A stretch of DNA of 23,278 nt, taken from the IMG/VR virus record IMGVR_UViG_2547132127_000004, one strand, 5' to 3'. Position numbers and translations under genes: made by a program. Below are positions 7,303 to 16,095 of the stretch, one piece after another; position 1 is the first letter of the stretch, and each line of letters begins with the position of its first letter. The notes under the pieces are model-generated. The model did not search any database and was not told the DNA's origin. It saw only the letters and a program-made list of their open reading frames with translations. The DNA comes from a virus (Duplodnaviria > Heunggongvirae > Uroviricota > Caudoviricetes).

Positions 7303-10209
7303 ATGAGGCCAAGTGAACTTAGCGACCTGCTTTGGGCGCAGGTTGACAGGGTGGCTCCGCACCTGTTGCCAAACGGCAAGATAGAGGGGCATGAGTGGGT
7401 TGCCGGTAACGTCAACGGTGACAAGGGAAACAGCCTTAAGGTCAACCTTATCGGCAAGAAAAAATGGGCTGATTTCGCTGAGGGAGACGGCGGTGACATG
7501 CTTGATTTGTGGATGGCATGTCGTGGAATTAACCTGCATCAGGCTATGCAGGAAGCGAAAGCATTTCTCGGTATCAAGGATGACGATCACCATTTCGATG
7601 CCAGACGTGAGAAGAAATTCTCCAGACCTGATCGTAAGAAAATCGCCCGCTACGTTACCAGAACAGAATCCCATCTTGAGTACCTGCAATCGCGTGGCAT
7701 ATCGCCAGAAGTCGTAAAGCGCTACGAGGTTGTCAGCGGCAAGGTGTGGAATGGAGAACGAGAACTGGATGCTCTGGTGCTTCCGTACAAACGCGATGGT
7801 GAGTTGTTGCAGGTCAAGCGAATCAGCACTGAGCGCCCGGACGGGAAGAAAGTCATTATGGCAGAAGGTGATTGCGAACCTTGCCTGTTCGGATGGCAGG
7901 CTCTGGACGCTGGCGTGAGGGCGGTTGTGCTTTGCGAAGGCGAAATTGATTGTATGAGCTATGCGCAATACGGCATCTCGGCGTTATCCGTGCCGTTTGG
8001 TGGCGGGAAAGGCGCTAAGCAACAGTGGATTGAGTTTGAGTATCACAACCTCGACAGGTTTGAGGAAATATTCATCTCGATGGACGTTGATGATGTTGGT
8101 CGTGAAGCCGCAAGGGAAATCGTAAGCCGACTCGGTGAACATCGTTGCCGTCTTGTTACTCTGCCGTACAAAGACATCAACGAATGCCTGATGAACGGTG
8201 TTACCGAGGATGAAATCTGGCAGTACATCGGCACGGCATCCTACTTCGATCCTGAAGAACTCTACAGTGCGCGAGAGTTTTACCAGGACACTATCAACGC
8301 TTTCTACGGCAAGCAGCAGTATCTGTTTAATCCACCGTGGGAATCTCTGGCAGATAAATTCCAGTTCCGTGAGGCAGAGTTGACGCTGGTCAATGGTGTG
8401 AACGGTCACGGAAAGGCATGCCCACTGAATGAGCCTATTCTTTTAGCTGATGGGACATGGACTACTCACGGGAATGTAAAAATTGGCGATCAGGTGGCGT
8501 CAGTAGACGGCAATCCGTCAACTGTCACTGGGATATTCCCGCAGGGTGTTAGAGATGTTTACCGAGTCACATTTGAAGATGGTCGTTATGTTGATTGCGC
8601 AGGCGATCACCTATGGGAGGTCACTAGTCGTGGATTCACGAAAGGCGAGAAACGCCGCGTGATAGATACCTTCGGGTTGAAGCGGTTGAGTGAAACGAAG
8701 AGGCACAAAAATGGCGTTAGGATTCCTGAAATAACTGGTGACTTTGGCGACCACTCAGAGCCATTAGCATGGGTTATCGGCTCCCTTCTCGGGGATGGTA
8801 GTCTTAGCAATGGGAGCGTGAAGTTTTCAAACGTCGAGCCATACATGATCGAGCGTATGAAGGCTGAACTGCCTGATTACAACTTCTCTGGAGATGGTAA
8901 GGACTGGCTGATATCAACGGCGCGTGGTCAGGTAAATCCACTCATGGAGACCCTGCGAGGTTATGGACTAATGGGGTGCACAGCAAAAAACAAATTCATC
9001 CCTCGTGTGTTTTTTTCCGCAAATAAATCAACGCGTATAGGCATGCTGTGTGGTCTGCTTGAAACGGATGGGTATGTCGAGAAGGATGGAACGCTTGTTT
9101 TTTCCTCAGCAAGTGAAGAACTGCGCAATGGGGTTGTTCAACTGGTTAACTCACTCGGCGGGTCATGCCGGACGCGAGTTAAAACTGGCGTGACATACAC
9201 ATACAAGGACGATAAGCAGCATGGGATGGATTCATACGAGGCAAGAATCAGACTGACAAGAGAAATCAGGGAGGCCATCCGTTCACCACGACTCAATGGC
9301 AGATTAACTGCGCATCGATTCGAGGGCTGTGGGGTATTCGTCAGGAATGTTGAAAAAATCGGCAATGCAGAATGCTTGTGTATTATGGTCGATCACCCTC
9401 GCCACCTGTATGTAACCAGGGGATATGTGGCGACGCATAACACCGAGGTTGTCGGGCATATGGCACTTGAGGCAATGCGTCAGGGTGTGAAGACGTGCAT
9501 CGCGTCACTTGAGCTGAAGCCTGGTATTCTCCTTAAGCGACTTACCCGTCAGGCAACGTGCTGCAAGATGCCGCCAGTGCTGGAAATTGACTCTGCATTT
9601 AAATTTTATGACGAAAGACTTTGGGTGTTTGGCCTGACTGGAACGGCGAAAGCCGACAGGCTGATCGAAATATTCGACTACGCTCGCCGCCGATACGGGA
9701 TCCAGTTATTCATCATCGACAGCCTGATGAAATGTGGCATAGGCGACGATGACTATAACGGGCAGAAGGCGTTTGTTGACTCGATTTGCGACTTCAAAAA
9801 CAAAACAAACTCCCACGTCATTCTCGTTACTCACTCGCGAAAAGGAGACAGCGAAGAAAAACCAACCGGGAAAATGGACGTAAAAGGCTCTGGAGCGATA
9901 ACAGGCCTGACAGACAACCTTTTCATCATCTGGCGTAACAAGGCTCGCGAGAGAGCGTTACAGAGAGTTCAGAGTGGTGAAAAGATGTCAGAGAAGGACG
10001 AACAGCTACTGGCATCTCCGGCATCTGTTTTGATGCTTGAAAAACAACGTAACGGCGAAGGTTGGGAAGGTGGTGTCCCGTTGTTCCTTGACGAGCAATC
10101 GCACCAGTTCCTGCAACTTGAATCAGGATCGCCATATAGCTACATCGCCAATATGCCGAAATCGGAATATGACGAGGCGTGGCGACAGGAAAACGTGACG
10201 GAGTATTAA
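7303..10209 (+). CDS. Phage primase-helicase (TOPRIM primase plus P-loop helicase) carrying an in-frame intein
   Basis: 968 aa. TOPRIM motif VLCEGEIDCMSY. Walker A GVNGHGK is interrupted and resumes as TEVVGHMALEAM after the insert. Walker B-like LFIIDSLMK and helicase C-terminal motifs follow. Confidence 0.8.
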   Translation: MRPSELSDLLWAQVDRVAPHLLPNGKIEGHEWVAGNVNGDKGNSLKVNLIGKKKWADFAEGDGGDMLDLWMACRGINLHQAMQEAKAFLGIKDDDHHFDARREKKFSRPDRKKIARYVTRTESHLEYLQSRGISPEVVKRYEVVSGKVWNGERELDALVLPYKRDGELLQVKRISTERPDGKKVIMAEGDCEPCLFGWQALDAGVRAVVLCEGEIDCMSYAQYGISALSVPFGGGKGAKQQWIEFEYHNLDRFEEIFISMDVDDVGREAAREIVSRLGEHRCRLVTLPYKDINECLMNGVTEDEIWQYIGTASYFDPEELYSAREFYQDTINAFYGKQQYLFNPPWESLADKFQFREAELTLVNGVNGHGKACPLNEPILLADGTWTTHGNVKIGDQVASVDGNPSTVTGIFPQGVRDVYRVTFEDGRYVDCAGDHLWEVTSRGFTKGEKRRVIDTFGLKRLSETKRHKNGVRIPEITGDFGDHSEPLAWVIGSLLGDGSLSNGSVKFSNVEPYMIERMKAELPDYNFSGDGKDWLISTARGQVNPLMETLRGYGLMGCTAKNKFIPRVFFSANKSTRIGMLCGLLETDGYVEKDGTLVFSSASEELRNGVVQLVNSLGGSCRTRVKTGVTYTYKDDKQHGMDSYEARIRLTREIREAIRSPRLNGRLTAHRFEGCGVFVRNVEKIGNAECLCIMVDHPRHLYVTRGYVATHNTEVVGHMALEAMRQGVKTCIASLELKPGILLKRLTRQATCCKMPPVLEIDSAFKFYDERLWVFGLTGTAKADRLIEIFDYARRRYGIQLFIIDSLMKCGIGDDDYNGQKAFVDSICDFKNKTNSHVILVTHSRKGDSEEKPTGKMDVKGSGAITGLTDNLFIIWRNKARERALQRVQSGEKMSEKDEQLLASPASVLMLEKQRNGEGWEGGVPLFLDEQSHQFLQLESGSPYSYIANMPKSEYDEAWRQENVTEY
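8416..9441 (+). other. Intein (Hint domain with LAGLIDADG homing-endonuclease domain) inside the primase-helicase Walker A motif
   Basis: Begins A372-C373 (ACPLNEPILLADG, block A-like) and ends ...YVATHN713 followed by Thr714. Two LAGLIDADG motifs (LAWVIGSLLGDGSL and IGMLCGLLETDGYV). Removing residues 372-713 restores the Walker A motif GVNGHGKT. Confidence 0.7.
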
Positions 10210-10287
10210 ATGACCATCTACATCACTGAGCTAATAGCAGGCCTGCTGGTAATCGCAGGCCTTTTTATTTGGGGGAGAGGGAAGTGA
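10210..10287 (+). CDS. Possible 25-aa single-helix membrane peptide (MTIYITELIAGLLVIAGLFIWGRGK)
   Basis: ATG immediately after the primase TAA; hydrophobic core followed by a basic tail. Too short for the ORF track; no homology claimed. Confidence 0.25.
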   Translation: MTIYITELIAGLLVIAGLFIWGRGK

Positions 10288-14707: not shown

Positions 14708-16095
14708 CAACTCCAGTATGGCGTAACGATGACCTTGAAGGCGCTGTCATCGGCGCGTTCTTTCTGCGCGGAGCAGATCCTGAAGTGATGGATATTCTGG
14801 CCACACTGCCAGCGGACGTTTTTTCTGTACGAGCGCATCAGGATATCTATACAGGCATCTGCAGACAGGCCCGTGTTTCAGGAGTGATTGACCCCGTGCT
14901 GTTGTGTAATGAGATGCCGGAACTTGCCCCGGTGATTACTGATACCGGGCGTAAAACCTGGGTGAAGTCTTCACTGGAGCACTATGTTGCAGCGTTGCGG
15001 CGCAATGCCGCACTGCGCGATGCAGAAAAAACACTGAATGAGGCGCTGCAGAAATTACGTGATGCGCATACCTGTGAAGCAGCTGAAGATGCCCTGAAGG
15101 ATGCGCAGAACATGATGGTCACACTGTCGACAGGAAAGGGCGTCATTCAGCCGGTACATATTGATGATGTGCTTCCGGAAGTGGTTGAGCGTGTTGAATG
15201 CCGGAATCAGGGGCTGGAGAAATCCAGGACGTTGATGACCGGTATTGATGAACTGGACGCAAAAACAGGCGGTATGGAGCCCGGAGACCTGGTATTCATT
15301 GCCGCCCGTCCTTCGATGGGGAAAACCGAACTTGCGCTGGACATCATCGACAAGGTGACTGAGCAGGGGCATGGTGTGCTTCTGTTCACCATGGAGATGG
15401 CGAACATCCAGATTGGTGAACGTATGGTGTCTGCGGCTGGAGGGATGCCAGTATCACGCCTGAAATCTGTGGCTCACTTTGAAGATGAAGACTGGACGCG
15501 TTTCTCACAAGGGGTGGGGCGGATGACCGGGCGCAATATCTGGATGGTGGACCAGGCGAACCTGGCCATTGATGAGATATGCGCAACAACGAAACACCAC
15601 CTGATTAAATATCCGGAAACGGCGCTGGTGGTGGTTGATTATCTCGGGCTGATAAAAACCCGAACCACGGGGCGTCATGACCTTGCCGTGGGTGAAATCT
15701 CAAAGGGGCTTAAAGGCCTGGCAAAATCCGGTGGTTTTCCGTTGATTGCGCTGAGCCAGCTCTCCCGCGGTGTGGAGTCCAGACCCAATAAACGTCCCAT
15801 GAACTCAGACCTGAAAAATTCCGGAGAAATAGAGGCGGATGCAGACATCATTCTGATGCTTTACAGGGATGAAGTGTACAACCCGGATACGCAGGCCAGG
15901 GGCATCGCAGAAATCAATATCACGAAACAACGTAACGGTTCTCTGGGAACGATTTACCGGCGTTTTTATAACGGACATTTTCTGCCTGTGGACCAGGAAA
16001 GTGCACGGGTGCTTTCCACTCCCATGAAGCCCGGCAATCCGCGCAGATACAGTAATAAACGAACTGACAGCAGTAAGATGGAGCGTTTCTTTTGA
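14704..16095 (+). CDS. DnaB-family replicative helicase
   Basis: ATGA coupling to the loader gene. Walker A FIAARPSMGKTELAL, Walker B LVVVDYLGLI, and the LSQLSR arginine-finger region. Confidence 0.8.
   Translation: MTTPVWRNDDLEGAVIGAFFLRGADPEVMDILATLPADVFSVRAHQDIYTGICRQARVSGVIDPVLLCNEMPELAPVITDTGRKTWVKSSLEHYVAALRRNAALRDAEKTLNEALQKLRDAHTCEAAEDALKDAQNMMVTLSTGKGVIQPVHIDDVLPEVVERVECRNQGLEKSRTLMTGIDELDAKTGGMEPGDLVFIAARPSMGKTELALDIIDKVTEQGHGVLLFTMEMANIQIGERMVSAAGGMPVSRLKSVAHFEDEDWTRFSQGVGRMTGRNIWMVDQANLAIDEICATTKHHLIKYPETALVVVDYLGLIKTRTTGRHDLAVGEISKGLKGLAKSGGFPLIALSQLSRGVESRPNKRPMNSDLKNSGEIEADADIILMLYRDEVYNPDTQARGIAEINITKQRNGSLGTIYRRFYNGHFLPVDQESARVLSTPMKPGNPRRYSNKRTDSSKMERFF

Follow-up and report, generated by a model that had tools for sequence, protein, structure and literature searches.

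The 23,278-nt stretch of DNA analysed here (hereafter the window; IMG/VR virus record IMGVR_UViG_2547132127_000004, Caudoviricetes) is a piece of a Shigella flexneri chromosome, with 99.95–99.98% identity over 20.2 kb to S. flexneri 5 str. 8401 (CP000266.1) and to two further complete assemblies at the same site. A defective lambdoid prophage, adjoining the host gene ygcP, extends from position 4889 rightwards. NinB, NinE, NinH, Phage_antitermQ, holin, lysozyme, and Rz follow one another in lambda order, and two sets of replication genes are placed among them, a primase-helicase gene (P) before ninB and an initiator, a DnaC-like loader, and a DnaB-like helicase between ninE and ninH. The genes named in an earlier note on this DNA, namely the primase-helicase, NinB, NinE, the toxin-antitoxin pair, Rha, the initiator, the loader, DnaB, NinH, and Q, are all supported by family matches (Table 1). 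The same note had described two unrelated replication modules; two unrelated gene sets are indeed present, but the first is incomplete, with its O initiator and iterons deleted.

Table 1. Features of the window (positions in nucleotides from its first letter; IS, insertion sequence; ORF, open reading frame)
Feature	Position	Strand	Basis or remark
Host genes ygcU/S/R/Q and split ygcP	1–4790		
Lambda-type tyrosine integrase remnant	4889–5827	-	Phage_integrase E=1.7e-40, Arm-DNA-bind; N-terminus lost at IS600 copy 1
IS600 copy 1, 1264 bp	5828–7091	-	
O-like initiator 3' remnant, 104 nt including stop	7092–7195	+	Alignment to prophages L005, L019, L020
Primase-helicase P, 968 aa, intact ORF	7303–10209	+	Toprim_2 and AAA_25/gp4-like helicase; phrog_510/239
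Class 3 intein (predicted) with LAGLIDADG domain, 342 aa	8416–9441	+	Hint and LAGLIDADG Pfam matches
Hypothetical nin-region ORF	10269–10562	+	Lineage A
ninB	10559–10969	+	NinB E=2.5e-56; lineage A
ninE	10966–11142	+	NinE E=4.8e-42; lineage A
HigA-like HTH antitoxin, lineage A allele	11184–11492	-	HTH_3 E=3.4e-11
Gp49/HigB-like toxin, 109 aa, intact, chimeric	11482–11811	-	Gp49 E=1.7e-24
Left crossover interval	11678–11700		Toxin codons 38–45
Rha-family regulator (ASH and Rha domains), pseudogene	11833–12693	+	Lineage B
Hypothetical protein, 77 aa	12690–12923	+	Lineage B
Replication initiator	12904–13818	+	phrog_270 E=7e-65; without Pfam match; lineage B
Four tandem 12-mers CAGAGAnTAnnn, 67% A+T	13364–13411		Mid initiator gene
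DnaC-like loader	13820–14707	+	IstB_IS21; phrog_50 E=6e-90; lineage B
DnaB-like helicase	14704–16095	+	DnaB_C E=3e-72; lineage B
Hypothetical protein, 85 aa	16092–16349	+	Lineage B
NinH	16441–16644	+	
Q	16601–17017	+	Phage_antitermQ
Lineage B late-control/lysis stretch (ninH, Q, four tRNAs, holin, hypothetical, lysozyme, Rz)	16441–19731	+	
Four tRNAs	17217–17527		Between Q and holin
Second switch interval, lineage B-like (L003) to sequence of lineage A prophages L005/L019	19262–19440		In Rz
IS600 copy 2	20114–21377	-	
IS600 fragment, 186 bp, inverted orientation	22881–23066	+	Abuts another IS3-family element starting at 23067

Two blocks of different lineage are joined in this prophage. Block A, from 7092 to ~11690, comprises the primase-helicase, ninB, ninE, the antitoxin, and most of the toxin gene, and block B, from ~11690 to ~19350, comprises Rha, the initiator, the DnaC-like loader, DnaB, ninH, Q, the tRNAs, the holin, and the lysozyme. 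Aligned separately, positions 7094–11142 match phages Min27, phi24B, Sf101, and mEp043 at ~98% identity, and positions 12130–17017 match the Stx1a-converting O145-type phages and phiP27 at 86–94% nucleotide identity. Over block A as a whole, identity to the lineage of Min27, phi24B, Sf101, and mEp043 ranges from 98 to 99.6%. The two replication modules belong to unrelated families, and their close relatives sit in different phage lineages, in agreement with the mosaic of two phages proposed earlier. The comparison of base composition and codon usage suggested at the same time cannot separate the blocks, with a GC content of 0.494 in A vs. 0.501 in B and a GC content at third codon positions of 0.531 vs. 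0.523; the codon distance between A and B (0.161, against 0.128 for one half of block B vs. the other) is likewise uninformative for lineage separation.

The native order in lineage A is cI - cro - cII - O-like - P (primase-helicase) - ninB - (dam) - ninE - ... - rusA - ninH - Q. The same primase-helicase follows an O-like initiator, in the normal position for replication genes, in Min27, phi24B, Sf101, mEp043, FDAARGOS_943, RMDEC465 (prophage L019), and Z1323CEC0013 (prophage L020), and the P gene of the window shares 99.2% nucleotide identity with that of FDAARGOS_943. The integrase remnant shares 98% identity with its counterpart in E. coli Z1323CEC0013, where the same ygcP site is occupied by an intact lineage A prophage. 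Because the integrase of this site belongs to an intact lineage A prophage, the left arm is native lineage A. At 10286–10950, the ninB allele and the ORF preceding it are unlike those of the closest lineage A prophage (L005), and no dam methylase gene lies between ninB and ninE; from the alignment, this is probably a further small mosaic patch inside block A.

In the case of lineage B, the corresponding sequence of CFSAN029787 lies within an intact-looking lambdoid prophage at mlrA, in the order cI - cro - Rha - ... - Rha - hypothetical - initiator - loader - DnaB - hypothetical - ninH - Q - tRNAs - lysis - terminase. In the Stx1a phage and phiP27, the helicase gene almost abuts Q. Replication genes followed by ninH and Q are the native order in lineage B. 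The initiator, the DnaC-like loader, and DnaB of block B are adjacent and intact, and their ORF lengths equal those of intact relatives. Among complete E. coli genomes, many strains of the enteroinvasive E. coli type match the window at 98.4–99.7% in prophages at mlrA, and the match begins exactly at 11849.

We found that both lineages carry a homologous HigB/HigA-like cassette, at different map positions. The cassette of lineage A directly follows ninE (FDAARGOS_943, RMDEC465) and is 97% identical to the window up to 11839, and that of lineage B precedes the replication genes, flanked by DUF4222 and Rha (TUM9812, C5, A8). The window aligns with TUM9812 without interruption over the cassette-Rha boundary, so this boundary is native to lineage B. 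We scored the discriminating sites in an alignment of the window to cassettes of both lineages, two from A and three from B. Between 11156 and 11690, 51 of the 52 discriminating sites carry the A base, and between 11691 and 11839 the B base is found at 10 of 12 (Fisher p=4.6e-9). Across this point, the identity to A drops from 99.6% to 88% and the identity to B climbs from 84–86% to 91–92%; the final A-only site is 11677 and the initial B-only site is 11701. To judge by these sites, the joint between A and B is a probable homologous crossover at 11678–11700, inside the toxin gene, which narrows the toxin-antitoxin/Rha segment of about 11143–12900 where the earlier note had placed it. Inspection of the boundary between A and B found no IS, attachment site, or other scar.

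The toxin is chimeric as a result of the switch: its N-terminal ~37 residues are of lineage B type (E11 and Q18), and the remainder is of lineage A type (N61 and V84). The toxin and antitoxin ORFs are both intact and overlap by 11 nt, with the toxin first; the 224-aa minus-strand ORF listed at this place over-extends the real 109-aa toxin gene. We regard the cassette as a putative type II toxin-antitoxin system of the HigB/HigA-like kind, in which neutralisation is predicted from the gene pair. A palindrome (ATAAC-N6-GTTAT) at 11822–11837, just upstream of the toxin start, is conserved in the cassettes of both lineages and may be a candidate operator for the antitoxin. Apart from this palindrome, the upstream region of the cassette is replaced by the coding sequence of Rha.

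A second switch occurs in Rz. Compared with L003, the one lineage B reference available for this switch, the window tracks lineage B through the lysozyme gene. All compared sequences are identical over 19262–19440 in Rz, and over 19441–19731 the window is of lineage A type (L005 and L019) at 12 of 12 discriminating sites. Beyond Rz, it remains L005-like at 97–99.5% up to 22883, and L003 instead has a ParDE/KilA-N segment. The two switches suggest a double crossover in which a lineage A genome would have received ~7.7 kb of lineage B DNA, from Rha to the lysozyme. In this proposed patch, Q would have moved together with the region downstream of it.

Taken with the native maps, these switches make it very probable that two lambda-like lineages recombined in a shared toxin-antitoxin cassette, and that the product is the IS-decayed defective prophage now fixed in S. 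flexneri. The backbone would have been a lineage A genome with the order int - ... - cI/cro/cII - O - P - ninB - ninE - toxin/antitoxin - ant - rusA - ninH - Q - lysis - lambda-like heads, and the donor a lineage B genome with the order cI/cro - DUF4222 - toxin/antitoxin - Rha - initiator - DnaC-like - DnaB - ninH - Q - tRNAs - lysis. The left exchange would have taken place in the toxin gene of the cassette, at its nin-region site in A and its pre-replication site in B. Because the shared cassette is out of register on the two maps, such an exchange would keep the replication genes of A and add those of B, leaving the B module between ninB/ninE of A and B's own ninH/Q, which accounts in full for the unusual arrangement; the second crossover in Rz would then close the ~7.7-kb patch. 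Later, an IS600-associated event would have deleted the integrase N-terminus and all that lay between it and the final 104 nt of O, followed by further decay through the nonsense codon in Rha, the IS600 in the late region, the IS nest in Nu1, and the split portal gene. We infer the order of these events, and the recombination machinery behind them, from the present arrangement.

Several points weigh against this reconstruction. The lineage B relatives that have the cassette are only 91–92% identical to the window over 11691–11839, and two sites within this segment, 11812 and 11838, carry A-type bases; the true lineage B parent is not among the relatives sampled, and the exchange may have left a patchier pattern than one clean crossover would. 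The right side could also have come from a single crossover, if the B parent already held this late region, the region after Rz being variable among lambdoid phages. The exchange may have taken place between two prophages resident in the same cell, between a prophage and an infecting phage, or before lysogeny.

Two direct copies of IS600 bracket 7092–20113, and they differ in their junctions. IS600 copy 1, an element annotated as IS600 in relatives, is without a target duplication (GAT on one side, GTC on the other); it adjoins the integrase gene, minus the N-terminus, on the left and the 104-nt 3' remnant of the O-like gene on the right. The integrase ORF as listed extends into this copy. By its flanks, copy 1 marks a deletion that took the N-terminus of the integrase and reached almost to the end of O. 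The missing stretch, ~12–14 kb in L020, holds xis, the early-left genes, N, cI, cro, cII, and most of O. Neither an immunity region (cI/cro) nor early promoters are found in the window, and comparison with L005, L019, and L020 shows them to have been lost where IS600 copy 1 now meets the 3' remnant of O. The 21-bp iterons of lineage A, present in 3–5 copies inside O in L001, L005, L019, and L020, have no match in the window. P is thus an orphan because the IS600-associated deletion removed its initiator O and the iterons. IS600 copy 2 is a simple insertion with a 3-bp GTC duplication (20111–20113 and from 21378) inside a Rha-family gene of the late region, and its target is unbroken in L005 (15224–15226).

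The Rha gene in block B really spans 11833–12693 and contains one in-frame stop at 12181–12183 (codon 117); it starts with ATA in the window vs. ATG in the TUM9812 homologue, and it is 99.5% identical to the gene of VL7S7. The array of four 12-mers in the initiator gene occurs at the same place in the relatives L002, L003, and L004. We read this array as a candidate origin of the lineage B module because the lambda origin likewise lies inside O.

The P gene is interrupted by an intein. The intein comprises residues A372–N713 and corresponds to an exact 342-aa gap against the 626-aa intein-less allele of RMDEC465 (L019). It is inserted in the Walker A motif of the helicase, GVNGHGK|T, between Lys and Thr. 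Position 1 of the intein is Ala372 instead of Cys, Ser, or Thr; its C-terminal residues are H712-N713, and the +1 residue is Thr714, i.e., the Thr of the Walker A GKT, so that the P-loop of the helicase is formed only upon splicing. The best solved relatives are the class 3 MchDnaB1 structures (6rix and 6riy). Class 3 inteins are defined by a WCT motif, consisting of Trp B:12, Cys F:4, and Thr G:5 (PMC3196547, PMC7664689). In a phmmer alignment, H436, W438, C693, and T711-H712-N713 fall on His65, Trp67, Cys124, and Thr143-His-Asn of MchDnaB1 6rix. C691 was also considered as the F:4 cysteine and rejected, as Cys124 of 6rix aligns with C693. On the strength of the aligned WCT and His residues and of the Ala at position 1, the intein bears the published class 3 signature, and splicing is predicted. 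The intein of phi24B P and this Shigella orthologue (YP_690085.1) have already been described, with splicing function untested (PMC3430580). The intein itself is therefore already published, and its class is not stated there.

The chimeric toxin sequence is found in 1,448 blocks of the collection. The junction ninE-cassette-Rha-initiator is present in 10 of the 10 long contexts read, all of them IS-riddled S. flexneri chromosomes and none with an immunity region, and the identical junction recurs in at least 13 complete chromosomes. An assembly artefact was considered and rejected, since the junction recurs across many independent assemblies. When searched with 10900–12300, neither the 50,697 phage records nor the 5,426 complete E. 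coli genomes yielded the ninE-cassette-Rha junction, and at least 80% of the window is covered in no complete E. coli genome. A functional phage with exactly this gene order, which the earlier note had named as the observation that would overturn its reading, was sought in these phage records and genomes, and among the contexts read, and not found. A literature search for two replication modules in a prophage returned nothing relevant. P is broken by IS elements in several S. flexneri strains, for example into 613 aa + IS + 274 aa (L030) or down to only 249 aa (L021). These data point to one recombination event that was inherited by S. flexneri and is now decaying. To the left of P in S. flexneri L021, L023, L025, L026, and L030 lie pieces of another prophage (YbcO, DUF1133, Rem, Hok, and QueH), which indicates IS-mediated inversions or translocations ending at the IS beside P in those strains.

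Other explanations for the two replication gene sets have to be weighed against recombination in the cassette. The earlier note had raised the idea of a satellite-like primase module, i.e., a phage satellite or integrative element, P4-like or similar to the phage-inducible chromosomal islands, whose primase-helicase was joined to a lambdoid prophage. P4-like satellites typically encode fusions of a Toprim primase with a helicase, and P directly follows an integrase remnant and an IS without a preceding initiator gene. However, a 98–99% identical gene lies between the O-like initiator and ninB in intact lambdoid phages, including the isolated phages Min27, phi24B, Sf101, and mEp043, so that the gene is the normal P of lineage A; the 104-nt 3' end of O still stands at 7092–7195, a full lineage A prophage with this integrase occupies the same site in E. 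coli Z1323CEC0013, and the window has no satellite-type genes. We consider this origin extremely improbable. An IS600-mediated fusion, by recombination between the copies or as a composite transposon, could also have joined two separate prophages, and would fit the two direct copies around 7092–20113, the role of copy 1 as a clear rearrangement or deletion endpoint, and the further IS-driven rearrangements of the region in S. flexneri strains. However, no IS lies at the boundary between A and B, where homologous cassette DNA runs on unbroken and the diagnostic sites change over gradually; copy 2, a simple insertion, is flanked by a GTC duplication of its own, and the outer flanks of a composite, GAT ... 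GTC, form no duplication. IS600 accounts for the loss from int to O and not for the joint between A and B, and a fusion of this kind is very unlikely.

It is also conceivable that a natural, functional phage lineage carried both replication systems, e.g., for host-range flexibility, and has decayed here. A reconstructed recombinant would retain every essential lambdoid function and could therefore be viable, and the replication ORFs of block B, as well as the 968-aa ORF of P, are intact in this strain. Against such a lineage stand the absence of the junction from the phage records and the E. coli genomes searched, the finding of the chimeric toxin, in all contexts read, within IS-degraded remnants in S. 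flexneri, and the disruption of P by IS elements in several strains, which argues against selection. We hold this explanation to be improbable, and prefer recombination in the shared cassette followed by decay. Both IS600 copies and the deletion at copy 1, the intein, the native order of lineage B, and the switch in Rz had escaped the earlier note.

Mosaicism of lambdoid phages by homologous exchange at shared patches, as in the modular theory, and IS-driven erosion of prophages in Shigella are well established. As in other mosaic lambdoid phages, the lineages here are joined at shared sequence, the toxin gene and Rz, and the flanking modules are near-identical to different sequenced phages; what differs is the nature of the shared patch, a portable toxin-antitoxin cassette at unlike map positions. 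Because these positions are out of register, the exchange would duplicate the replication function rather than swap alleles. Compared with phi24B and Min27 (PMC3430580), P is an orthologue with 955 of 968 residues identical to phi24B P, with Toprim and gp4d-like helicase domains, the same intein position, and ninB next; however, O and the iterons have been lost here through the IS600-associated event, and P is an orphan. The initiator - DnaC-like - DnaB - hypothetical - Q order, with the nucleotide identity given above (86–94%), is shared with phiP27 and the Stx1a O145-type phages, but the module in the window has no upstream immunity region and early promoter and is located downstream of the nin genes of another phage. 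In the case of the intein, Ala1, the aligned WCT and His residues, the His-Asn end, the Thr at +1, and the P-loop insertion are common to the class 3 DnaB inteins (MchDnaB1 6rix; MsmDnaB1 6bs8), whereas the LAGLIDADG domain, and the gp4-like primase-helicase of an enterobacterial phage as the host protein, set it apart from the solved class 3 mini-inteins.

The margins of the prophage show additional changes. On the host side, ygcP is a pseudogene (4215–4790, minus strand), with ORFs of 54 and 121 aa compared with one 191-aa gene in E. coli Z1323CEC0013. The tRNA cluster consists of a CAT tRNA, Arg-TCT, Thr-TGT, and Gly-TCC; the CAT tRNA is called Met by ARAGORN and tRNA-Ile in the annotation of the E. 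coli relatives. In the draft contig QWSQ01000111.1 (L010; 10491–13173), 100% identity to 7037–17527 of the window ends with the end of tRNA-Gly, after which a 534-aa integrase (DUF6538 and Phage_integrase) replaces the holin; the prophage tRNA in L010 may serve as the attachment site of another integrative element. At the right end, the IS nest in the small terminase gene Nu1 (22881–23278; L033 11504–13973) consists of the inverted IS600 fragment and then two other IS3-family elements. In the same chromosomes, the DNA to the right of the window continues from the IS nest in Nu1 to GpA, gpW, a split portal, an S49 protease, a decoration protein, and capsid E.

The prophage is no new kind of element: it is ordinary mosaicism followed by decay, and lambdoid mosaicism, the decay of Shigella prophages, and the intein of P are all established. 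Annotators should treat the region as a single decayed chimeric prophage and not as two elements or a satellite, and P should be flagged as an intein-bearing orphan. The point of some interest is that non-colinear exchange through a portable toxin-antitoxin cassette yields a duplicated function and an intact chimeric toxin; the locus is a base-resolved example of how a short cassette at unlike map positions gives rise to a non-colinear recombinant with duplicated replication functions, later eroded by IS600. That portable toxin-antitoxin cassettes act as general anchors for out-of-register recombination in lambdoid phages is a tentative and rather doubtful extension. If it were true, exchange in such cassettes would duplicate or delete whole modules and make chimeric toxins that need to pair with the antitoxin of one parent, and toxin-antitoxin cassettes would be drivers, and not mere passengers, of non-colinear phage mosaicism.

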